NCBI GenBank assembly: GCA_031372065.1
Contig: JANMKN010000248.1
Span: 1-14,131 of the forward strand
Origin: Abditibacteriaceae bacterium
GTDB lineage: Bacteria; Armatimonadota; Abditibacteriia; Abditibacteriales; Abditibacteriaceae
Direction: 5' to 3'
Length of the DNA stretch: 14,131 nucleotides
Under the pieces are notes generated by a model. That model was not told the DNA's origin. It saw only the letters and a program-made list of their open reading frames with translations, and ran no database searches. Positions 138-13,940 of the stretch are shown here, piece by piece. Each line of letters starts with the position of its first letter. The stretch's first letter is position 1. The position numbers were made by a program, and so were the translations under genes.

Positions 138-165
138 TGAACCCTTTTGCGCGTCTCTGTAACTA
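138..165 (+). promoter_or_regulatory. Candidate ECF-type (autoregulatory) promoter
   Basis: TGAACC (138-143) followed by a T-tract, then GTAACTA (159-165), ending 8 nt before ATG 174. This is an AAC-containing -35 and a GT-containing -10 as in ECF promoters. Spacing is only approximately canonical. Confidence 0.4.
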
Positions 166-173
166 ATAAGACG

Positions 174-776
174 ATGAGCGCAGCAGAACGGCAGTTGATA
201 CAACGAATCGCCAAGGGCGAACGCGCCGCTTTCGAGGCATTTCTCGACAGTTACGGGCCGCAAGTGCAGCGTTTGGTGCGCCGTTACACCTTGTCCGAAG
301 CCGACGCCGAAGATTTGACGCAGGAGATTTTTCTCGACCTTTATCGAAGCATCAGCAACTTTCGCGGCGAATCGGCGCTTTCGACATGGGTTTATCGCGT
401 GGCGCTCAATCATTGCTTGCGCCACCGCGAAAAACAAAAACAACACAGCGCCACGCAAGCCGACGACCTCCCCGATGAGCGCGCCGATGAAAATCCCGGC
501 ACCGACCCGGCCCGTCAAACGGCGCGCGTCGAACTGCGCGGTCAAGTGCAGGATGCTTTGCAAGATTTATCGCCCGCGCAACGCAGCGTCGTCATTTTGC
601 ACGAACTGCACGGCCTGACTTACAACGAATGCGCGCAGATTTTAGAAGTGCCTGTCGGCACCGTCAAATCGCGCCTTTCCAATGCGTTTACGCATTTGCG
701 CGCCAGTCTGGGAAGCTACGTTTTAGGCGATACCGAAGACTCCGCGCCACCCACCCCGTTGGGAGAAGCCGCATGA
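174..776 (+). CDS. ECF-family RNA polymerase sigma-70 factor
   Basis: Region 2 motifs DAEDLTQEIFL and STWVYRVALN; region 4 LSPAQRSVVIL...LTYNECAQILEVPVGTVKSRL. ATG 174 is preferred over TTG 147, which lies inside the candidate promoter. Confidence 0.95.
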   Translation: MSAAERQLIQRIAKGERAAFEAFLDSYGPQVQRLVRRYTLSEADAEDLTQEIFLDLYRSISNFRGESALSTWVYRVALNHCLRHREKQKQHSATQADDLPDERADENPGTDPARQTARVELRGQVQDALQDLSPAQRSVVILHELHGLTYNECAQILEVPVGTVKSRLSNAFTHLRASLGSYVLGDTEDSAPPTPLGEAA

Positions 777-2768: not shown

Positions 2769-4571
2769 ATGCCTGAAAGCACTCCGCCAGACAACGAAAA
2801 TTCAAAAAATCGCGACGAAAACCACGATTCGCCTGAAAGCCGCGAAATCTTGCAGGCACAAATGCAGCAACTCGCGACCCAGCTACAAGAATCCGAAGCC
2901 AGTCTTCAATCTCAAAAAGAGCAGTTTCAGGCTGTGCTTGATGCTGTGCCGGGCGGCGTATCGTGGATTGATACAGATTTAATTTATTTAGGCGCTAATG
3001 AGCATCTTACGTCGCTTTATGGCCTCAAACCACTCGATTTTATTGGTCAACCTATCGGCTTTTTGAATAATAGCCCCGGTTTTTCCAATTTTGTGCGCGA
3101 ATTTGTCAACAGTAAAGAATTTACCGCCTCGCGCGAATTGGATGTCATCGTAGATGGAGAACGCCACGTTTTCCTATTCATGGCGAAAAAATATCGTTTG
3201 GGACAATCGGCGCTGTTTGTGGGCATTGACATAACAGATCGCAAATTGGCCGAAGAAAAATTATTTCGCAACGCTTTTTATGATAAATTGACCGGTTTGC
3301 CCAATCGCTCGCTGCTTTTGGAGCGCATGGAACGCTCGCTCGAATATGCCAAACGCCATAAGAACTATTTGTTTTCCGTTTTATTTCTTGACTTTGACGG
3401 CTTCAAAAACGTTAATGACAGTTTAGGTCACACCAATGGTGATCGTCTGTTGGCGTCGTTAGCCCGCCGCCTCGAATCAGCTACGCGCTCTATGGACACA
3501 GTCGCGCGTTTGGGTGGCGATGAATTCGTCATTCTCCTTGAAGATATCGAAGGCTTACATAGCGCCACGCACATTGCCGAGCGTATTCAGCGCGCTTTAG
3601 CGATTCCGTTCACGCTTGAAGGCCAGGAAGTTTTCATGAGCGTTAGCATCGGCATCACGTTAAATACGGTGCCCTACGAGCAAACCGACGAACTTTTGCG
3701 CGATGCCGACACCGCGATGTATCGCGCCAAAACACAGGGCCGCAGTCGCTACGAAGTTTTTGATCGGCAAATGCACGAACAGGCGAAATCTCGACTGCAA
3801 ATGGAAACTGACCTGCACCGAGGGATTGAGCAAAAAGCGTTTTTGTTGCACTATCAGCCGATTGTAAATCTTGAAACTCAGCGTTTGAACGGCTTTGAGG
3901 CTTTGGTGCGCTGGATGCGCCCACAACGCGGCTTCACCGCCCCCGGCGAGTTTTTAGGGCTTGCCGAAGAAACTGGTTTAATCGTGCAAATTGATCGTTG
4001 GGTGATGCTGGAAGCCTGCCGTCAGATCAACGAGTGGCGTGGGCAGTTCTCTGGTTTTGAGGATTTAACCGTCGCCGTCAATTTATCGAGCCGCCAATTT
4101 TTGCGGCGCGATTTTTTGAAGTTTGTGCATCAAATGCTGGAAGAATCCGGCTTGCCGCCGCACTATTTAAAGATGGAAATCACCGAAAGCGCATTAATGG
4201 AAAATATCGAAACCGTCGCCGCAACGTTAGGCGAATTGCGCGACATGGGAATTCGTATTTCGATTGACGATTTTGGGACGGGCTACTCGTCGCTATCCTA
4301 TTTGCATCGTTTGCCGCTCAACACACTTAAAGTAGACCGTTCGTTCATCACGGAAATGGAAACCAAGCAGGAAAATCAAGAAATTGTGCGCGCAATTGTC
4401 ACGTTGGCACACAATCTTCATTTGAATGTCGTTGCCGAAGGTATCGAAACCGAAGCGCAGCTTGCCAGTTGCCGCGCACTCAATTGCGAGTTTGCCCAAG
4501 GCCATTATTTCAGCAAAGCCCTCACTGCCGAAGATGCCACAGAACTGCTCAAAGCCGGGGGACAATGGTAA
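2769..4571 (+). CDS. PAS-GGDEF-EAL diguanylate cyclase/phosphodiesterase (cytoplasmic)
   Basis: N-terminal coiled coil; PAS ending in GIDITDRK; YDKLTGLPNR, LDFDGFKNVND, RSMD I-site, RLGGDEF, ADTAMYRAK; EAL domain with YQPIV, FEALVRW, EITES, DDFGTGYSS, LKVDRSF, AEGIET, QG. Confidence 0.96.
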   Translation: MPESTPPDNENSKNRDENHDSPESREILQAQMQQLATQLQESEASLQSQKEQFQAVLDAVPGGVSWIDTDLIYLGANEHLTSLYGLKPLDFIGQPIGFLNNSPGFSNFVREFVNSKEFTASRELDVIVDGERHVFLFMAKKYRLGQSALFVGIDITDRKLAEEKLFRNAFYDKLTGLPNRSLLLERMERSLEYAKRHKNYLFSVLFLDFDGFKNVNDSLGHTNGDRLLASLARRLESATRSMDTVARLGGDEFVILLEDIEGLHSATHIAERIQRALAIPFTLEGQEVFMSVSIGITLNTVPYEQTDELLRDADTAMYRAKTQGRSRYEVFDRQMHEQAKSRLQMETDLHRGIEQKAFLLHYQPIVNLETQRLNGFEALVRWMRPQRGFTAPGEFLGLAEETGLIVQIDRWVMLEACRQINEWRGQFSGFEDLTVAVNLSSRQFLRRDFLKFVHQMLEESGLPPHYLKMEITESALMENIETVAATLGELRDMGIRISIDDFGTGYSSLSYLHRLPLNTLKVDRSFITEMETKQENQEIVRAIVTLAHNLHLNVVAEGIETEAQLASCRALNCEFAQGHYFSKALTAEDATELLKAGGQW

Positions 4572-4635
4572 ACCCTTGAGGCCCCGCCATTTTTCCTATT
4601 AAATCATCTTTGCTTGGTGTGCTTTGTAACCTACT

Positions 4636-5835
4636 ATGTCCGTTACACCTGTGGATTCGCCTGACGCCTCCTCGCCAGATACTTTTTTCAGCGCCCCTCA
4701 TTGTGGCGCGATTCTGCTGGCAGACGACACTATGACCATGCGCCTGTTGCTGGCGGATCAGATAAAACAAATGGGTCACGAAGTGACTTCGGTAAAGCAT
4801 GGTCAAGCAGCGCTGGAATTGCTGGAACAACGCGACTTTGACGTAGTTCTTCTGGACGTTTATATGCCTGTGCTGGATGGTTTCGGCCTATTACAAGTGT
4901 TAAAACATGACCCGCGCTGGCGTCAACTTCCGGTTTTAATGATCTCCTCGGCTTCCGAACAAGACGCCGTAATTCGCTGCATTGAAATGGGCGCCGATGA
5001 TTTCTTGCACAAACCCTGCGATCAAATTTTGCTGCGGGCGCGTTTAAATGCCTGTCTTGAAAAAAAACGATTTAACGACCAACGCGAACAACTTTTAAAT
5101 CAGCTTCGTAAAAACTACGCGGAATTACAAAAATTTGAAGAATTACGCGATAGCCTGATGCACATGATTGTCCATGATATGCGGGCACCTCTCACTTCCA
5201 TTGTCAGCGGCTTGGAAATGATCGAATTCCTACCCGATATATCAGCAGATCAGCGCGATGAACTGCTGGCTTTGGCTCATCAAGGCGGCAAAACGCTGAT
5301 GGGCATGATCAACGATTTATTGGACATTTCGAAAATGGAAGCGGGCGGTATGGACTTAAATTACGTCCCGGTTAATGCCCATGAGTTAATCGAGATTTCC
5401 ATCCACCAACTCAAAGCATTGCTCGCTGACTGCGCTTTATCCTTACAACACACTATCGCACCTGATTTACCTAAATTTTGGTGCGACGCGTCGAAAATCA
5501 GTCGAGTTTTGGTGAATCTGCTGGGCAATGCCATTAAATTTTCCCCGCGAGAAAGTATTATTACGATAGAGGCAAAAAGAGGCAAAGGCGAGCATGAAAA
5601 CACCATTCAATTTTCAGTGAGCGACATTGGAGAAGGGATTCCACACGAAGCGTTCGGGCGTATTTTTGAAAAGTTTGGACAAGTCGAAAGCCGCAAAGCG
5701 GGCCGCAAAATGTCTACCGGACTCGGCCTAACTTTTTGCAAGATGACCATCGAAGCGCACGGCGGCAAAATCTGGCTCGAAAGCGAACTCGGCGAAGGCA
5801 GCACTTTCTATTTCACCGTGCCCTTACAAAAATAA
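4636..5835 (+). CDS. Hybrid receiver-histidine kinase (REC-HisKA-HATPase_c) with no sensor domain
   Basis: Receiver: ILLADD, VLLDVYMP, FLHKP. Kinase: H-box HDMRAPL, N-box NLLGNAIKFS, G1 DIGEGIP, F-box IFEKF, G2 GLGL, GEGSTFYF. Confidence 0.95.
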   Translation: MSVTPVDSPDASSPDTFFSAPHCGAILLADDTMTMRLLLADQIKQMGHEVTSVKHGQAALELLEQRDFDVVLLDVYMPVLDGFGLLQVLKHDPRWRQLPVLMISSASEQDAVIRCIEMGADDFLHKPCDQILLRARLNACLEKKRFNDQREQLLNQLRKNYAELQKFEELRDSLMHMIVHDMRAPLTSIVSGLEMIEFLPDISADQRDELLALAHQGGKTLMGMINDLLDISKMEAGGMDLNYVPVNAHELIEISIHQLKALLADCALSLQHTIAPDLPKFWCDASKISRVLVNLLGNAIKFSPRESIITIEAKRGKGEHENTIQFSVSDIGEGIPHEAFGRIFEKFGQVESRKAGRKMSTGLGLTFCKMTIEAHGGKIWLESELGEGSTFYFTVPLQK

Positions 5836-5909: not shown

Positions 5910-5938
5910 TTGACGACATTCCTGCAATGGGCTACCAA
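5910..5938 (+). promoter_or_regulatory. Candidate sigma70 promoter for the carrier-protein operon
   Basis: TTGACG (5910-5915), 17-nt spacer, TACCAA (5933-5938). The -10 is imperfect. If real, the next gene would start at GTG 5951. Confidence 0.3.
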
Positions 5939-7120
5939 ATGGGCCACATCGTGAATCAATCACAAATCACCGACCTCATTCAAAAATCCCGCGCCATCGC
6001 CGCTGAAATTGCGGCGCCCAACGCGGACGACGTAGATAAAAACTCGCGCTTTCCGCGTGAGGCTTTCGTCGCCGCACGCGAAGCTAAATTGCTGTCCGCC
6101 GCTGTGCCCGTGGAACTGGGCGGCGAGGGTGCTTCCATGCGCGATTTGGCTTCAATTTGCGGCCACTTCGCGCATGGTTGCGGCGCCAGTGGCATGGTGA
6201 TGGCGATGCATTATATTCAAGTCGCTTGTATCGTGCGGCATGGCTTGTCCTCGCCGGATTTGCGCGATTATTTGTGCGAATTGTCAGCGCAACAACGCCT
6301 AATTGCCTCGGTGACTTCAGAAGTCGGCACCGGAGGCGACACGCGCGCCAGCATTTGCGCAGTGGGGCGCGAAAACGGCTGTTACCACGTCGAAAAAGAC
6401 GCCACAACGGTATCGTATGGCGAACACGCCGACGACCTTCTTTTGACGTGCCGCCGCGAAGCCGAAGCGCCCAACAGCGATCAAGTTTTGGTGCTACATA
6501 AAAAAGGCGATTACGAATTAACGCGCAAAGGCGAATGGGACACACTGGGAATGCGCGGCACTTGCAGCCCGCCGTTTTTGGTGACGGCACGCGGGCCGGA
6601 AGGTCATATTGTGCCCGGCTCGTTCGCCGATTCGTCGGCGCAAACGATGGTGCCCTACTCGCATATTTTGTGGGCCAGCGTGTGGCATGGCATCGCCGCT
6701 GACGCGGTGGCGCGTGCGGGCACTTTCGTGCGTGCCGCCGCCCGCAAAACGCCCGGCACGGTGCCTCCCACAGCCACGCGCCTTGCCGAAGTGACTGTTG
6801 AACTCCAAGCATTGCGCAATAATTTCATGGCTGCCGCTGCCGATTTCGATGCCTTGCCAGAAGGCGAAGAAGGACGCGAAGAATTATCATCACTGCGCTG
6901 GGCACTGAGGATGAATAATCTCAAAATTGCAGCCTCTGAAGCGGCACCTAAAATTGTGCATCACGCCTTGCAAATCATCGGCATCAGTGGCTATCGCAAT
7001 GGCACGAAGTTTTCCGTAGGACGCCATTATCGTGACGTTTTATCTGCCTCACTGATGATTGGCAATGACCGTATTTTGTCGAAAAACGCTTCGATGTTGC
7101 TGGTTTTCAAGGACGACTAA
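5927..7120 (+). CDS. Acyl-CoA/acyl-ACP dehydrogenase-family flavoprotein (atypical active site)
   Basis: ACAD features: VDKNSRFPREAF, VPVELGGEG, SVTSEVGTGGD, WDTLGMRGTCS, ALQIIGISGY, RHYRD. Start uncertain (ATG 5927, ATG 5939 or GTG 5951). Confidence 0.92.
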   Translation: MGYQMGHIVNQSQITDLIQKSRAIAAEIAAPNADDVDKNSRFPREAFVAAREAKLLSAAVPVELGGEGASMRDLASICGHFAHGCGASGMVMAMHYIQVACIVRHGLSSPDLRDYLCELSAQQRLIASVTSEVGTGGDTRASICAVGRENGCYHVEKDATTVSYGEHADDLLLTCRREAEAPNSDQVLVLHKKGDYELTRKGEWDTLGMRGTCSPPFLVTARGPEGHIVPGSFADSSAQTMVPYSHILWASVWHGIAADAVARAGTFVRAAARKTPGTVPPTATRLAEVTVELQALRNNFMAAAADFDALPEGEEGREELSSLRWALRMNNLKIAASEAAPKIVHHALQIIGISGYRNGTKFSVGRHYRDVLSASLMIGNDRILSKNASMLLVFKDD

Positions 7121-7123
7121 TTT

Positions 7124-8032
7124 ATGCCAACCTACGATTTGCATGAGTTTTACGAAGGCCTCGTCGCGCATGGCCTGATTATTCCCACCGGCGTGCAAGG
7201 TGCCTTCGGGCGCGGCGCGGTTTTTGAAGACGTTCTTGAACAATTAGACCGCGCCATTTTGCGAATTTCGGCCAACGATGGCGCCGAAGTTGTGAACTTC
7301 CCGCCGGTGATTGACCGCACCATCATTGAGCGCACCGGCTACTTTGAATCGTTTCCGCACTTGGCGGGCACTGTCCACAGCTTTTGCGGCCACGAACGCG
7401 AATCGCGCAACCTCGCTGAACGTGCCAAATCTGGCGAGCCTTACGCCGAGATGTTGGACATCACCGATGTGGCGCTCTCGCCCGCCGCATGCTATCCGGT
7501 TTATCCGACCAACAAAGGGATTTTGCCTGTAGGCGGGCGCTTAGTGACGCTGATTTCATGGGTTTATCGCCACGAGCCATCCGAAGAACCAACGCGAATG
7601 CAATCGTTTCGCGTGCGCGAATATGTGCGTTTGGGAATGCCTGACGAAGTGCTGAAATGGCGCGATATGTGGCTGCAACGCGGCGTGGATTTTCTGCTTT
7701 CGCTGGAATTGCCCGCGACGCCGAGCGTCGCCGCCGACCCGTTTTTTGGACGCGCCGGAAAAATGTTGGCCGCCGGACAACTCGAACAAAAACTCAAATT
7801 TGAGGTGACAATTCCTGTGATTTCGGAAGAAGAGCCAACAGCGGTTTGCTCGTTCAATTATCATCTGGAAAAGTTCGCTTCCACCTTCGGAATTCAAACC
7901 AGCGACGGCGAAGTGGCGCATACAGCTTGCCTTGGTTTCGGTATGGAGCGCGTCGTGATGGCGCTTTTCAAAACGCATGGCTTCGAGCCGAAAAACTGGC
8001 CGCCAAGTGTGCGCGAAAGGCTGTGGTCGTGA
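7124..8032 (+). CDS. Amino acid:[carrier protein] ligase (class II aaRS / atypical SerRS catalytic-domain homolog)
   Basis: 302 aa with no tRNA-binding domain. GYFESFPHL, SPAACYPVYP, motif 2 YRHEPS...RMQSFRVRE, ADPFFGR, SFNYH, motif 3 HTACLGFGMER. Candidate Zn ligands C123, E166, C269. A carrier protein is in the same operon. Confidence 0.93.
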   Translation: MPTYDLHEFYEGLVAHGLIIPTGVQGAFGRGAVFEDVLEQLDRAILRISANDGAEVVNFPPVIDRTIIERTGYFESFPHLAGTVHSFCGHERESRNLAERAKSGEPYAEMLDITDVALSPAACYPVYPTNKGILPVGGRLVTLISWVYRHEPSEEPTRMQSFRVREYVRLGMPDEVLKWRDMWLQRGVDFLLSLELPATPSVAADPFFGRAGKMLAAGQLEQKLKFEVTIPVISEEEPTAVCSFNYHLEKFASTFGIQTSDGEVAHTACLGFGMERVVMALFKTHGFEPKNWPPSVRERLWS

Positions 8033-9027
8033 AGGGCGCACACGATTTGACCGCGCCAATCAGCGCGTTGCCCAGCTTCTTTGCGGCGAACTATCAGCCG
8101 CATCGTTTGCACGCCGAAGAATGTCTATGGGTCGAAAAAAACTGTTACATTGACATCTGGATTGAGCTTTTGCACGCTCTCGGCTGCGAACCTTTGGCTG
8201 CGATGGGCTTCACAGCGGCAATTGATTTCGAGGGCGACAATTGGACCTTTTTCAAGCCGCCGCACGAAGATTTAAAAATGCTTTTTGGCGTGGACGTGCA
8301 GGAACTCAATGTGTGGCGCCCGCTGATTGACCACGCTGCCGAATATCTCGCGGCAGGCAAATTTATCAGCACCGAAGCTAATTCGTTTTGGCTGCCCGAC
8401 ACCGTCGGCACAGATTATCGCACTAATCACGTCAAAACCACGATTGTGCTGGTCGAATTGGACGTAAAACAGCGGCGCCTCGGCTATTTTCACAATGCCG
8501 GTTTTCACTATTTGGATGGCGAAGATTTCGCGCAAACTTTCGCGCTGGATCGGTCCGCCGATTCGAGTTCTCTGCCACTTTTTGCCGAAATCGTGCGCTC
8601 TGATCGTTTGACACGCCATGCGCCGGACGACCTGAAAAAAGTCGCTTTAAATCTGCTGCGCAAACACGTTGCTCGTCGTCCGTTGGACAATCCGGTTCGG
8701 CGTTTTCAAGCGCGTTTTGAAAGCGATTTGCCTTGGTTGCAAGAACAAGGTTTGGCGACTTATCATGCGTGGGCGTTCGCGACTTTGCGGCAATTGGGCG
8801 CCGCGTCGGAATTGCTGTCGCATCATTTGAGTTGGCTTGATGAACAAAAATTCGCGGCGGCAGCAAACGATTTTGCAATGATCAGCGCCATCGCGAAAAC
8901 CTTTATTCTCAAAGCGGCGCGGGCCGTAAATTCCAAAAAACCGCTGGATTCCTCGCCGCTTTTCGACGAAATGAGCGCCGCGTGGCAAAACGGCATGGAC
9001 AATTTAGAAAAGGCACTCGATTCGTGA
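8029..9027 (+). CDS. DUF1839-family protein
   Basis: GTGA overlap with the ligase stop. Family-typical WVEKNCYIDIWIELLH, DFEGDNWTFFKPP, SFWLPDTVGTDY, HVKTT, YFHNAG, AFATLRQLGA. The ORF-track start at 7846 overlaps the ligase by about 190 nt and is unlikely. Confidence 0.85.
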   Translation: MKGAHDLTAPISALPSFFAANYQPHRLHAEECLWVEKNCYIDIWIELLHALGCEPLAAMGFTAAIDFEGDNWTFFKPPHEDLKMLFGVDVQELNVWRPLIDHAAEYLAAGKFISTEANSFWLPDTVGTDYRTNHVKTTIVLVELDVKQRRLGYFHNAGFHYLDGEDFAQTFALDRSADSSSLPLFAEIVRSDRLTRHAPDDLKKVALNLLRKHVARRPLDNPVRRFQARFESDLPWLQEQGLATYHAWAFATLRQLGAASELLSHHLSWLDEQKFAAAANDFAMISAIAKTFILKAARAVNSKKPLDSSPLFDEMSAAWQNGMDNLEKALDS

Positions 9028-9398
9028 ACGGTTTGCGCGTCGGCATTGACTTGGTGCAAATCAGCCGCATCGCGCAGTCGCGCGAGCAGTTCGGCGAGCG
9101 TTTTTTACGGCGCGTTTTCACCGAGCATGAAATTGAATACGCGCTTTCTTCGCCGCCTCACACCGATTCGCGCTTGGCGGCGCGCTTCGCGGCCAAAGAA
9201 GCGACGATTAAAGCGTTGCGCGTGGATGGCGAGGGCGTCAATTTTAAGAATATCGAAGTGCGCCGCGAATCATCTGGCGCTTGCACTTTGGTTTTGCACG
9301 AAGAAGTCGCACGATTGGCTGAAGGCATCGGCGAATTTGCTCTCAGCATGAGTCACGAAGGCGATTATGCGACGGCGGTAGTCGTTGCGTTGTCATAA
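9024..9398 (+). CDS. acpS: Holo-[acyl-carrier-protein] synthase (4'-phosphopantetheinyl transferase, AcpS type)
   Basis: GTGA overlap with the DUF1839 stop; motifs VGIDLV, FLRRVFTEHE, AARFAAKEA, LSMSHE; 124 aa. Confidence 0.93.
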   Translation: MNGLRVGIDLVQISRIAQSREQFGERFLRRVFTEHEIEYALSSPPHTDSRLAARFAAKEATIKALRVDGEGVNFKNIEVRRESSGACTLVLHEEVARLAEGIGEFALSMSHEGDYATAVVVALS

Positions 9399-9451
9399 AA
9401 AGGCAAATAGATTGCTTCTTCATCAGCACGAAATTCGTGAGGAGAAAAATC

Positions 9452-9703
9452 ATGTCTGAACAAAACACCAACACCGCCATTCGCCGCATTTTAGGAGCGC
9501 ATGGGCGCCTCGCCCGCGATGTAAACGACCTGACCGAGGAAGCCGATCTTTATCAGGCCGGCATGACCTCGCACGCCAGTGTCAACGTAATGTTGGCTCT
9601 CGAAGGCGAATTCGACGTGGAATTCCCCGATCATATGCTCAAACGCAGCGTTTTCGGCAGTATTGCCGCGATCCGCAGCGCCATTTGTGAGCTGGCTCTC
9701 TGA
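9452..9703 (+). CDS. Aminoacyl/acyl carrier protein
   Basis: RBS GAGGAG (9439-9444), 7 nt before ATG 9452; 83 aa; DLYQAGMTSHASVNVMLALEGEFDVEFPD, with the phosphopantetheine-attachment Ser in GMTS. Confidence 0.93.
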   Translation: MSEQNTNTAIRRILGAHGRLARDVNDLTEEADLYQAGMTSHASVNVMLALEGEFDVEFPDHMLKRSVFGSIAAIRSAICELAL

Positions 9704-9705
9704 TT

Positions 9706-12198
9706 ATGAATGGTCGCGTTCGCAGCATCAGCGGTCAACAAATTACGCATTTGACGGCGGAGTGGGAGATGACTCTCACTCCGCCGTTTGCCGTCTCCGC
9801 GCCTGAGGCGTTTGGCGATAATTTATCTTGGATTCCGGCCACGGTGCCTTCAACAGCCGCCTCGGTTTTGCGCGAGGCCAGCTTATGGAGTTTGGACGGA
9901 GCGCCGCGACTCTTCGATGCCGAAGATGTGTGGTATCACACCAAATTTACAATTGGAACCAGCAGTGAAAATTTATTTTTATGCTGCGCTGGCCTTGCGA
10001 CAATCGCCGAAGTTTGGCTCAATGGCGAACACATTTTATCGAGCCAAAATATGTTCGTGGCGCACGAAATTCCGCTGCAAAATTTCAGCGGCGAAGTAGA
10101 TTTAACGATTTGTTTTCGCGCCTTGGACGAACACTTAAAACAACGTCGTCCGCGCCCGCGTTGGCGGGCGCCAATGATCGAAAACCAGCAGCTTCGCTGG
10201 GTTCGCAGCACGTTTTTGGGACGAACGCCGGGTTGGTCGCCGCCCGCCGCGCCGGTTGGCCCCTGGCGCTCTGTTTATTTTGAAAAACGTGGCACATTTC
10301 ATATTGATGATGTGAAGTGGAAAACGCGACTTGAAGGCGAAATTGGCCTTATTGAAATCGGAGCGCACATTGTCGGCGCTGACAATGCCAAAATCCTTCT
10401 CGAACGTAAGGGAAAAACATGGCAGGCGCCTTTGACTATTGAAAATGGCCGAGTGATGGGCATTTTGCGAATCGAAAACGTTGAAAAATGGTGGCCGCAC
10501 ACGCATGGCGAACCGGTGCTTTATGCGGCGCGGCTTTGCGCTGATAATTACGAGGCTGATTTAGGCCATATCGGTTTTCGCAGCGTGGAACTGAACACTG
10601 AAAATGGCGATTTCGCCTTATCCATCAACGGCACGCCGATTTTCTGTCGCGGCGCCTGCTGGACGCCGCTGGATATTGTTTCGTTGCATTCAGCGCCCGA
10701 AACCATCGAAAATGCTGTCGTGCAGGCACGCGATGCAGGCCTGAATATGCTGCGCGTTTCCGGCACAATGACCGATGAAAGCGATGCGTTTTACGATGCG
10801 TGCGACAAGCATGGCCTCTTGATATGGCACGACTTTTTGTTCGCCAATTTGGATTATCCCGACGAGGAAAATTTCAACGAAAGTGTCAGAACCGAAGCGC
10901 GCCAATTGCTGGCGCGTTTGGCCGCACGCCCTGCATTAGCCGTGCTATGCGGCAACAGCGAAGTCGAACAGCAAGCCGCGATGTGGGGCGCCGCGCGCGA
11001 TTTGTGGCAGCCGCGCTTGTTTCACAAAATTTTGCCCGAATTAGCGCGTGAATTCTGTCCTGACGTGCCGTATTGGCCTTCGTCGGCGCATGGCGGCGCG
11101 TTTCCGCATCAGGCCAATTGTGGCACGACTTCGTATTATGGCGTCGGCGCCTATTTGCGGCCTCTCGATGACGCGCGCCGCGCCGAAGTGCGCTTTGCGA
11201 CGGAATGTTTGGCCTTTGCGAACGTGCCCGATGAATCGAATTTAAAAGCGATGCCCGGCGGCCTTGCCAATCGTGCCCATCATCCACATTGGAAAACGCG
11301 TGTGCCGCGCGATTTGGGCGCCGGTTGGGATTTCGACGATGTGCGCGACCATTATTTGAAAGAGATTTTCGGGCTTGATGCGGTTCAATTGCGTTCCACT
11401 GATCATGCCCGCTATTTGGAACTAAGCCGCGTGGTGACGGGCGAAGTGATGGCGGCGACTTTTGGCGAATGGCGTCGCGCGGCTTCGCCGGCCAACGGCG
11501 CGCTGATTTTGTTTTTGCGCGATTTGTGGCCCGGTGCCGGCTGGGGAATTGTAGATTCGCAAGGCCATGCCAAAGCCGTATGGCATTATTTGCGGCGCGC
11601 TTTGGCGCCACTTGCCGTTTCCATCAGCGACGAAGGTCAAAGTGGCTTGCATTTGCATCTCATCAACGAGAGGGCTGAAGAATTTACCGGGAACGTTGCA
11701 ATTGAGTTCTACCGTGACGGCAAAATCCCTGTCGGTATGGAACGTTACGGATTCATATTGGCGCCACGAGAAAACCTTGAGCTAAATGCGGGCGAATTGT
11801 TCAGTCACTTCATAGACTCCAGTTATGCTTATCGTTTCGGGCCACCGTCGCACGATTTGGTTGTTGCCACTTTGCATGACAGCGATGGCGAATTTCGTTC
11901 GCAGTCGTTGTTGTTTACGATTGGCCTGCCTTCTGTCCAAAAACGCGATTTGGATTTAAGGGCACGGGCGCGAACTGTTGATGAAAAAACTTGGATTCTA
12001 CGCGTTACAAGCAATGGTTTCGCGCAATCGGTATTTGTCGATGTCGCTGGTTTTGAAACCAGCGATAATTATTTCCACGTTGCGCCCGGCGGCGAACGCG
12101 AAATCGTTTTGCGACGCACAACGTCGGGCGAAAACGCGCCATCAGGCACATTACAAGCGTTGAATTCTGAAAACGCCACGACGATTGTATTAGCATGA
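9706..12198 (+). CDS. Glycoside hydrolase family 2 (beta-mannosidase-like) protein with no signal peptide
   Basis: GLATIAEVWLNG, WWPHTHGEPVLY, GHIGFR, INGTPIFCRGA, GLNMLRV, FYDACDKHGLLIWHDFLFA, LCGNSE (acid/base candidate E419), YWPSS, RFATE (nucleophile candidate E500), WGIVD, SDNYFHVAPG. Confidence 0.92.
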   Translation: MNGRVRSISGQQITHLTAEWEMTLTPPFAVSAPEAFGDNLSWIPATVPSTAASVLREASLWSLDGAPRLFDAEDVWYHTKFTIGTSSENLFLCCAGLATIAEVWLNGEHILSSQNMFVAHEIPLQNFSGEVDLTICFRALDEHLKQRRPRPRWRAPMIENQQLRWVRSTFLGRTPGWSPPAAPVGPWRSVYFEKRGTFHIDDVKWKTRLEGEIGLIEIGAHIVGADNAKILLERKGKTWQAPLTIENGRVMGILRIENVEKWWPHTHGEPVLYAARLCADNYEADLGHIGFRSVELNTENGDFALSINGTPIFCRGACWTPLDIVSLHSAPETIENAVVQARDAGLNMLRVSGTMTDESDAFYDACDKHGLLIWHDFLFANLDYPDEENFNESVRTEARQLLARLAARPALAVLCGNSEVEQQAAMWGAARDLWQPRLFHKILPELAREFCPDVPYWPSSAHGGAFPHQANCGTTSYYGVGAYLRPLDDARRAEVRFATECLAFANVPDESNLKAMPGGLANRAHHPHWKTRVPRDLGAGWDFDDVRDHYLKEIFGLDAVQLRSTDHARYLELSRVVTGEVMAATFGEWRRAASPANGALILFLRDLWPGAGWGIVDSQGHAKAVWHYLRRALAPLAVSISDEGQSGLHLHLINERAEEFTGNVAIEFYRDGKIPVGMERYGFILAPRENLELNAGELFSHFIDSSYAYRFGPPSHDLVVATLHDSDGEFRSQSLLFTIGLPSVQKRDLDLRARARTVDEKTWILRVTSNGFAQSVFVDVAGFETSDNYFHVAPGGEREIVLRRTTSGENAPSGTLQALNSENATTIVLA

Positions 12199-13940
12199 AC
12201 TCTCCACGCGCCCAGCCGCTTTATTTTGGCCCTGAATCGCGCCCGCTTTTTGGCTGGCTGCATCGCGCGGCCACCGAAAATAATCTCGGCCTTGTGATAT
12301 GCAATCCGTTCGGTCACGAAGCACAAAGTTGTCATCGTAGCCTGCGTCACTGGGCGCAAAGTGCCGCCGCAACGGGCATTCCAGCGTTGCGTTTCGATTT
12401 CGATGGCACGGGCGACTCGTGCGGCAGCGATACAGACCAAGATCGCCTCGCGGCGTGGATTGGCAGCGTTCAGAGTGCCGTCGCAACTTTGAAACAGACA
12501 ACTGGCGTGCATCGCGTGGCGCTTTTGGGCGTGCGATTGGGCGCGTTGTTGGCGACTTTAGCGGCGTCCGAAAATCCAGAAGTATGCGCGTTGGCTTTGG
12601 TCGCGCCCGTTATCAGCGGCAAAGCATGGCTGCGCGAAATGCGCGCTTTGCACAGCGCGTTAGCTTTATCCGAAACGCCCGCCGACGCCGAACCTTTGCC
12701 CGATGGCGCCCGCGAAGCGTTGGGCTTTTTTCTCTCGGCGCAAACGCAGCAATCGCTGACAGAAATTGATCTGTCCAAAATCGAAAAAGCGCCCGCTGCG
12801 CGCGTTTTATGGCTTGACCGCGATGATTTGCCCAACGGCGAAAAGGTGAGGGCGCATTTTGAGGCATTGGGCGCCGAAGTTGACCACCAAACCTTGCCCG
12901 GCTATGCCGATATGATGCGCGATCCGCATGAATCGCAAGTGCCGCAAACGATGATTGCGGCGACGACAGATTGGCTGTGTTCAATGGCTGCTAAAAATGC
13001 CTCGTCGCCCATTTCCGCCCCAATAAAAACGAGTGCTTTGGTCAGCGACAAAGTGCAAGAACACGCGGTTTTTTTAGACGACGAGCGCCAATTATTTGGC
13101 ATCGTCAGCGCGCCGCGCGAAAAGAACATTGGGCAAGCGCACAAAGCGATTTTGCTGATTAATTCCGGCGCGAATCATCGCACCGGGCCGAACAATCTTT
13201 ATGTGAAATTAGCGCGCCATTTCGCCCGGCGCGGTCATTTGGTTTTGCGCATGGACATCGCGGGCCTCGGCGATAGCTTGCCGCACAAAAACGAAGACGA
13301 ACACATTGTTTACACGCCGCACGCGACAAACGATGTGCAAACGGCGCTGAAATACCTGCGCGACAAATGGAATGTCACCGAATGCCACGCGGCGGGACTG
13401 TGTTCGGGTGGTTATCATGCCTTCAAAGCGGCATTGGCAGGCGCGCCGCTGAACGGCGTGATTTTGATTAATCCGCTGACATTCAACTGGAAAGTCGGCG
13501 ATTCTTTGTATGGGCCGAACAGTCAGGTCATCGCCGAAGCCGAGCGCTATAAGCAATCCATGATGCAGGCCGACAAATGGAAAAATTTACTAAGAGGAAA
13601 AACCAGTGCGAAAGTCGTGGCGCAATTTGTGGGACGCCGCGTTGCTGATGTTGCCGGGCGGCGTGCCCTAAATGCCGCACAACGCTTCGGTTATCGTCGC
13701 CGCGATGATTTAGGCGCGGCCCTGGAAACTCTGGCGCGGCGCGGCGTTGCCTTGCAATTCCTATTTTCTGAAGACGATCCCGGTTTTGCCCTCTTGCACG
13801 AACAAGGCGGAGCGGCGGTGTCGCGTCTGGAAAAAGCTGGTTTCCTCACGATTCAACGCCTCGCCGGGCCAGATCATACCTTTACGCCGCTGTGGTCGCA
13901 TCCGCACCTCATAGCGGCAGTTGAGAAAACTTTCGAGTGA
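12195..13940 (+). CDS. Tandem alpha/beta-hydrolase-fold fusion protein (resembles exosortase-A-associated hydrolase 2 + hydrolase 1)
   Basis: ATGA overlap with the GH2 stop. Domain 1: PFGHE, LRFDFDGTGDS, LGVRLGA. Domain 2: LRMDIAGLGDS, AGLCSGG, FSEDD, GPDHTF. Confidence 0.9.
   Translation: MNSPRAQPLYFGPESRPLFGWLHRAATENNLGLVICNPFGHEAQSCHRSLRHWAQSAAATGIPALRFDFDGTGDSCGSDTDQDRLAAWIGSVQSAVATLKQTTGVHRVALLGVRLGALLATLAASENPEVCALALVAPVISGKAWLREMRALHSALALSETPADAEPLPDGAREALGFFLSAQTQQSLTEIDLSKIEKAPAARVLWLDRDDLPNGEKVRAHFEALGAEVDHQTLPGYADMMRDPHESQVPQTMIAATTDWLCSMAAKNASSPISAPIKTSALVSDKVQEHAVFLDDERQLFGIVSAPREKNIGQAHKAILLINSGANHRTGPNNLYVKLARHFARRGHLVLRMDIAGLGDSLPHKNEDEHIVYTPHATNDVQTALKYLRDKWNVTECHAAGLCSGGYHAFKAALAGAPLNGVILINPLTFNWKVGDSLYGPNSQVIAEAERYKQSMMQADKWKNLLRGKTSAKVVAQFVGRRVADVAGRRALNAAQRFGYRRRDDLGAALETLARRGVALQFLFSEDDPGFALLHEQGGAAVSRLEKAGFLTIQRLAGPDHTFTPLWSHPHLIAAVEKTFE

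Follow-up and report, generated by a model that had tools for sequence, protein, structure and literature searches.

A DUF1839 and carrier-protein gene cassette from Abditibacteriaceae with a possible role in the acylation of surface polysaccharides

The contig JANMKN010000248.1 of an Abditibacteriaceae bacterium (14,131 nt, analysed as one whole contig and called the window here) carries seven genes for an ACAD-fold flavoprotein, a SerRS-like amino acid-to-carrier-protein ligase (aa:CP ligase), a DUF1839 protein, an AcpS-type phosphopantetheinyl transferase, a carrier protein, a GH2 protein, and a fused double alpha/beta hydrolase. We lean, by a small measure, towards the view that this cassette moves a carrier-bound, alanine-derived acyl group onto the repeat units of a surface polysaccharide at the cytoplasmic side. 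The cassette itself is not new; its ligase belongs to a known family, and its neighbourhood is published.

Linkage of the cassette to polysaccharide genes

The first-pass annotation of the window had named a sugar or glycan as the plausible acceptor, and this was supported by hydrolase-flippase fusions and by polysaccharide loci. In locus L100, the hydrolase inside the cassette was fused to a Wzx-family flippase, and two of the eight long proteins returned were further such fusions, P0007 and, in the reverse order, P0008. The three share approximately 30% identity where aligned, so a single assembly error copied three times is not their origin. The cassette was located inside polysaccharide loci in Burkholderia, in alphaproteobacteria, and in locus L083, and the adjacent polysaccharide genes, where present, encoded Wzx, Wzy, Wzc, Wza, and priming transferases. 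In a sample anchored on the ligase, local profiles detected polysaccharide genes at 10 of the 12 hydrolase-bearing loci compared to none of the 4 loci without the hydrolase, a count in which the GT4 matches perhaps include some unrelated enzymes, such as glycogen synthase.

To survey the cassette more widely, 42 loci were collected via DUF1839 (41 plus one from a separate search), with four duplicate or own loci dropped. The ligase and the ACAD-fold flavoprotein were each encoded in 41 of them, the carrier and GH2 in 36 each, the hydrolase in 28, and AcpS in 18; AcpS is thus an accessory member. A membrane acyltransferase of the AT3 type was present in 10 loci (one of them the self-hit of the seed) against a background of 0.5%. 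The core genes had been claimed to co-occur in other bacteria, and the cassette indeed recurs across phyla, so the grouping is not due to chance. The claimed novelty of the compact arrangement did not survive, as 4 of 41 related loci show the exact seven-gene order, a further 3 show it with an inserted GNAT gene, and the core neighbourhood is published: GH2, ligase, ACAD, and carrier genes are given as constant neighbours of DUF1839 in the accessible part of a 2023 supplement (PMC10318531).

The co-occurrence check proposed earlier was run, and GH2 and the hydrolase were found to travel with the ligase in even samples of one order and one phylum, in the ligase-anchored sample, and among the DUF1839 loci. 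DUF1839 was detected in 3 of 151 genomes of the order and 5 of 201 genomes of the phylum, the seed genome being included in each. GH2 matches with E-values of 1e-100 or better fell in the same 3 and 5 genomes, and one further genome matched at 2e-90. The hydrolase was present in all 8 DUF1839 genomes, with weaker matches, many of them split pairs, in 27 and 10 others. In the third sample, anchored on the ligase, 26 of 151 genomes matched and gave 25 non-seed loci. Sixteen of these had Gly at the specificity site of the ligase, and all 16 contained the carrier, ACAD, DUF1839, and GH2 genes, with the hydrolase in 12. Six others had Ala at this site and kept the ACAD gene, with no DUF1839, GH2, or hydrolase gene within approximately 9 kb. 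The remaining three were distant ligases adjoining an MBOAT gene. Five loci without GH2 nearby were tested, and GH2 was encoded elsewhere in all five genomes.

In its own lineage, DUF1839 was found in only 3 of 41 genomes, the window's genome included, and the ligase of the window clustered with Myxococcota and Proteobacteria copies (support 0.93; 66 rows, 12 near-duplicates dropped). This scarcity and this grouping suggest a mobile unit, with no donor being claimed.

Enzymes of the cassette

DUF1839 matched its family with 352 bits. The fold search revealed a papain-like N-domain and a helical-bundle C-domain, the fold of CcbD, AziU3, and CtaG, and by this model DUF1839 is predicted to be a carrier-dependent amide-forming acyltransferase. 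Whole-chain matches were obtained with CcbD/LmbD (lincosamides), CtaG (closthioamide), BtrH (butirosin), and AsbE (petrobactin). These enzymes share with DUF1839 the two-part architecture, the invariant N-terminal Cys, and a carrier and loading enzyme encoded alongside, whereas their identity to it is only 11-15%. AziU3/U2 shows that this fold is also capable of ring closure. C39, D124, H134, T/S137, and H155 were kept in 39 of 39 sequences; C39, H134, H155, and D124 are candidate triad residues by sequence, geometry aside. The accessible part of PMC10318531, the one paper in the literature searched in which DUF1839 appeared, describes it as papain-like, with a C(T/S)H triad that is non-canonical. 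Comparison of DUF1839 with DUF6005 by hhalign gave a probability of 0.4 with a profile of only 5 sequences, and DUF1839 is not mentioned in the text or supplement of the CtaG paper. Condensation enzymes had been stated to be absent. No condensation, ketosynthase, or AMP-binding family matched any of the seven cassette proteins in the family profile search, but DUF1839 itself is condensation-like by fold, and a likely condensing enzyme can thus be named.

The gene identities assigned earlier were backed by Pfam and NCBIfam matches. The ligase, a 302-aa class II catalytic core without a tRNA-binding domain, scored 405.5 bits against NF005479 (curated cut-off 357), the carrier 99 bits against NF005480 (cut-off 72), and AcpS 70 bits against the ACPS family. 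Ser40 of the carrier (codon 9569-9571) is the predicted phosphopantetheine site. C123, E166, and C269 of the ligase, present in 45 of 45 cassette ligases, are predicted zinc ligands and correspond to the Cys/Glu/Cys residues that we take to be the zinc site of aa:CP ligases. G271 occupies the site held by Ala in the Bradyrhizobium Gly ligase, and Gly stands there in all 45 cassette ligases. This site, equivalent to A281, is presumably the determinant of Gly versus Ala specificity; the Ala that marks the Gly:CP subtype is replaced here. If this meaning of the residue holds, the ligase is probably of the Ala/Ser type and not of the Gly type, which favours only a part of the earlier proposal that Ala, Gly, or Ser is loaded.

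The nearest solved structures were those of Bll0957, the Bradyrhizobium Gly:CP ligase 1 (PDB 3MEY; chimera 4H2W), with an E-value of 1e-76. Both ligases belong to NF005479, their zinc-site residues align, and both have carrier and ACAD neighbours. However, Bll0957 has Ala after C-x, where the cassette ligases have Gly. Since none of the six ligases with the Bll0957 motif had DUF1839, GH2, or the hydrolase nearby, the crystallised enzyme represents a different branch, and the system divides into two branches by ligase type. Atu2573 is the Agrobacterium Ala:CP ligase. A tandem pair of ligase genes was seen in locus L025 (394-2238).

The flavoprotein lacks the canonical catalytic Glu at both base positions, having I378 and S245 at what we take to be the SCAD/MCAD and IVD Glu sites, respectively. 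Position 378 is I or V in 43 of 43 sequences, and position 245 is S, T, or A; S163, H246, W249, W253, M377, N380, and R382 are invariant. The ACAD fold was matched with a TM score of about 0.8 to SCAD, MCAD, TcsD, and DszC alike (16-23% identity), so that the fold scores for flavin monooxygenases (DszC, nitrososynthases) versus dehydrogenases were tied. A flavin reductase-like gene was near only 3 of the 42 loci. The flavoprotein assignment held, but it is doubtful that its proposed oxidation of the tethered residue is a plain alpha,beta-oxidation, because both canonical glutamates are missing.

The GH2 protein contains the GH2 domain set and no N-terminal hydrophobic stretch. E419 and E500, which align with beta-mannosidase motifs, did not vary among 25 of 25 sequences. 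The -1 pocket of beta-mannosidases (W-D-W, W-G-G, N-E, and W-Q-x-N-D) is not conserved; the corresponding motifs are P-G-W, small residue-G, S418-E419 (25 of 25), and, in most members, W-F-x-R-D. These motifs mark a subfamily with an altered sugar pocket. P0003, P0004, P0001, and P0002, each represented by one sequence, are fusions of GH2 with the hydrolase and double hydrolases in tandem, either real or read-through errors, and in locus L045 a GH99-like gene (8625-9854) is inserted between DUF1839 and GH2.

The N-half of the double hydrolase has Arg114 at the nucleophile elbow and is predicted to be inactive. The C-half has a G-x-C-x-G elbow with C403, in line with the Cys-type hydrolase fusion described earlier, and C403, D/E528 (D528 in the window), and H561 were found in 21 of 21 sequences. 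The halves scored below the cut-offs of TIGR03100 and TIGR03101, the exosortase A-associated hydrolases 1 and 2 (104 and 98 bits versus 168 and 203). Both domains, their order, the Arg elbow followed by the Cys elbow, and the position beside carrier-loading genes are shared with these families; the cassette hydrolase nevertheless forms a separate branch, grouping with pairs linked to polyketide synthase (PKS) and nonribosomal peptide synthetase (NRPS) genes (support 0.94). Where DUF1839 is missing from the genome, related pairs of hydrolases come after PKS or NRPS genes (L088, L089, L091) or, in L079, after an acyl ligase and a decarboxylase; the pair of L089 stands among glycosyltransferases and Wzx. 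Another fused double hydrolase of the Arg/Cys kind is encoded in the window's genome, directly after the gene of an AMP-binding acyl ligase (L097:3301-6552, G000:C84). This placement behind PKS, NRPS, and acyl-ligase genes fits a general carrier-unloading role, and the cassette hydrolase is predicted to be a carrier-unloading transacylase, which offers a testable function for the TIGR03100/TIGR03101-like pair. The pairs of L088, L089, and L091 are split Arg/Cys pairs, and the adjoining PKS/NRPS genes had no thioesterase family match; these pairs are possibly unrecognised release or transfer enzymes.

Proposed pathway and alternative explanations

From the observed genes, linkage, folds, residues, and fusions, we infer all reactions that would follow carrier loading. 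AcpS, by its family, would prime Ser40 of the carrier, and the ligase would load Ala, or possibly Ser, as a thioester, a chemistry established for the family, with the specificity suggested by G271. The flavoprotein may then oxidise the tethered residue, more likely between C-alpha and nitrogen than between C-alpha and C-beta, giving either an N-oxidised alanine or, once hydrolysed, a 2-oxoacyl group (pyruvoyl, for example); this step is weakly founded. Judged by its fold, Cys39 of DUF1839 could accept the acyl group and form an amide with an amine; in the CtaG mode this would be the free amine on another loaded carrier, and in the mode of CcbD and BtrH it would belong to an amino sugar. GH2, which stays with the genes of the loading, oxidation, and amide steps, might supply or trim the sugar partner, the weakest step of all. 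The fusions and the gene context suggest that the C403 half of the hydrolase would move the acyl group from the carrier to a hydroxyl group on a sugar in the lipid-linked repeat, which Wzx would then flip out, and that AT3, where present, may share the unloading. The earlier description of the pathway as self-contained is doubtful, since an additional membrane acyltransferase, esterase, or methyltransferase is frequent among relatives and the acceptor is likely encoded elsewhere.

The Dlt system (DltA, DltC, DltB, DltD) carries out the D-alanylation of teichoic acids and has a logic in common with the cassette, in which alanine is first attached to a carrier by a ligase and then moved to a surface polymer. 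Dlt uses an ANL ligase, whereas the cassette has a class II synthetase-like one; unlike Dlt, the cassette has no MBOAT protein and adds an oxidase, an amide ligase, GH2, and the hydrolase. In Burkholderia, a five-gene block of the cassette is flanked by Crp-type and sigma-54 regulators near genes of the bep kind, and the gene content there is similar to that of the bep cluster of Burkholderia cenocepacia (Bcam1330-1341, BerB Bcam1342, BerA Bcam1349). Bcam1333 (AT3) and Bcam1334 (a TIGR03100-like hydrolase) are bep genes according to the accessible part of PMC3584217, the regulators were taken from that of PMC5552954, and the accessible part of PMC9684580 gave nothing further on bep. Bcam1343-1348 are not mentioned as cassette genes in the literature searched. 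The Bep extraction used 0.3 M NaOH, and no substituent is described in the accessible part of PMC7084887; in such alkali, esters would be lost and amides retained. As Gal, Glc, and Man are the sole sugars of the repeat, an ester made by the hydrolase or AT3 fits, but a direct DUF1839 amide on the repeat does not.

Several points weigh against the transfer to polysaccharide repeat units. Among the 42 DUF1839 loci, only 11 had polysaccharide genes in their flanks (one being the seed's self-hit; background 6%), and the fetched flanks of the other 31, many on short contigs, contained none. The polysaccharide and AT3 backgrounds were both derived from one genome, that of the window. In the profile scan, Wzx, Wzy, Wzc, Wza, and glycosyltransferases were absent from the window, where signalling genes are the neighbours of the cassette, and the sole AT3 match in its genome was weak and on another contig. 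The bep likeness is one of gene content, and the order partly differs. Furthermore, the Bep repeat consists of Gal, Glc, and Man that are all alpha-linked (PMC7084887, accessible part), so neither a beta-glycosidase nor a repeat-borne amide fits. P0007 is a singleton, and it and P0008 are known as proteins alone, outside any genomic context. The clade of cassette hydrolases had a support of only 0.40. Moreover, L086, one of the 8 DUF1839 loci of the even samples, had no ligase in the fetched stretch, one Rhizobium plasmid copy had no GH2 nearby, and related genomes are not independent, so the locus counts overstate certainty.

A small diffusible product is an unlikely alternative, in which DUF1839 would amidate an amino sugar or amine in the style of CcbD, BtrH, or AsbE, GH2 would release the product from a glycoside, and the hydrolase would serve as a plain thioesterase or editor. 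The nearest DUF1839 folds all come from small-molecule pathways, most loci (31 of 42) are solitary, methyltransferase and GNAT genes recur alongside, and pairwise identities of the ligase are tracked closer by GH2 (rho 0.76) than by the hydrolase (rho 0.57). However, the hydrolase-flippase fusions in both orders and the cassettes in the polysaccharide loci of Burkholderia, alphaproteobacteria, and L083 are at odds with such a product, and the neighbour clustering revealed no exporter family that unrelated loci had in common.

We regard it as quite improbable that the acyl group is placed on another envelope glycoconjugate (lipopolysaccharide core or lipid A, glycolipid, periplasmic glucan, or glycoprotein) rather than on a Wzx/Wzy exopolysaccharide. 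AT3 frequently occurs without polymer genes in its 10 loci, MBOAT adjoins distant ligases, and cell-wall glycan or lipid processing is proposed in the accessible part of PMC10318531; nevertheless, the polysaccharide genes adjacent to the cassette, where found, are those of the Wzx, Wzy, Wzc, Wza, and priming transferase kinds. A salvage role, in which GH2 and the hydrolase would degrade an acylated glycan or glycoside, with oxidation of the carrier-bound product by the ACAD-fold protein, is highly improbable: an ACAD combined with two enzymes of hydrolase fold is typical for catabolic routes, and both GH2 glutamates are intact, but the ATP-using amino acid ligase, the dedicated carrier, and the amide-ligase fold indicate synthesis, related hydrolase pairs follow biosynthetic PKS/NRPS genes, and no uptake system recurred in the neighbour clustering.

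Returning to polysaccharide acylation, a wider and rather doubtful speculation is that the ligase, the glutamate-less flavoprotein, and the CcbD/CtaG-type ligase together form a general, hitherto overlooked route of exopolysaccharide decoration with an oxidised or N-acylated alanyl unit built on a carrier, and that the paired Arg/Cys hydrolases constitute a new class of acyltransferase, cytoplasmic and acting from carrier to glycan at Wzx, which would also serve PKS, NRPS, and acyl-ligase systems. If so, Bep-type polymers would bear an alkali-labile substituent that is invisible to the published structure. The role of carrier aminoacylation by aa:CP ligases was said to remain unknown in the accessible part of a 2022 review (PMC9437257), and an alkali-labile substituent on Wzx/Wzy polysaccharides is the place where their purpose might be looked for.

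Layout of the window and other ligase loci

All seven same-strand open reading frames (ORFs) described earlier were re-found (Table 1). The gaps along the cassette are, in order, 3, -4, -4, 53, 2, and -4 nt; the five junctions given previously were right, and the 53-nt spacer between AcpS and the carrier had been omitted. We infer co-transcription from this spacing only. The flavoprotein may start at 5939 or 5951 instead. Since the contig ends only 191 nt 3' of the hydrolase gene, additional downstream genes are possible. The GC content is 54.6% in the cassette, 50.3% in the upstream part, and 53.2% in the genome. The window copy is an ordinary member of its kind, and its value is that all soluble enzymes and the priming transferase are encoded within 8 kb.

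Table 1. Genes of the cassette and its upstream flank, in window positions
Feature	Position	Strand	Basis or remark
ECF sigma factor gene	147-776		
PAS-GGDEF-EAL protein and receiver-histidine kinase (hybrid kinase) genes	2769-5835	+	Directly upstream of the cassette
ACAD-fold flavoprotein gene	5927-7120	+	ORF, Pfam/NCBIfam
SerRS-like amino acid:[carrier protein] ligase gene	7124-8032	+	NF005479
DUF1839 gene	8029-9027	+	GTG start, Pfam
AcpS-type phosphopantetheinyl transferase gene	9024-9398	+	GTG start, ACPS family
Dedicated carrier protein gene	9452-9703	+	NF005480
GH2 beta-mannosidase-like gene	9706-12198	+	GH2 domains
Fused double alpha/beta hydrolase gene	12195-13940	+	TIGR03101 then TIGR03100 halves, below cut-offs

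Overlapping the sigma factor gene is one for an anti-sigma-like protein that contains DUF4349 and a zf-HC2 finger (the pair spans 147-2110); the start of this second gene is likely 773 rather than 629. The sigma pair, the GGDEF-EAL gene, and the hybrid kinase gene lie outside the cassette as seen in other loci, where this context is not conserved. By comparison with bep, a cyclic di-GMP connection to the cassette is possible.

A cytoplasmic GFSQG carboxylesterase joins the cassette in 19 of the 42 loci (e.g. L003:17168-17860), and S-adenosylmethionine-dependent methyltransferases (L002, L007, L085) and GNATs (5 loci) recur beside it. The Gly-type ligase loci L115 and L117-L121 retain the ACAD gene; a short-chain reductase and an AMP-binding enzyme are encoded close by in L117, L119, and L120, and L119 also has a thiamine pyrophosphate enzyme, a class IV aminotransferase, a cupin, and a GINT1_N gene. 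A third kind of SerRS-like ligase, approximately 400 aa long and below the family cut-off, was found in L122:5595-9794, L123:6915-9997, and L124:4697-8725, where it sits between an MBOAT gene and an ORF of 75-87 aa. These three loci look like a Dlt-type aminoacylation driven by a class II synthetase homologue.

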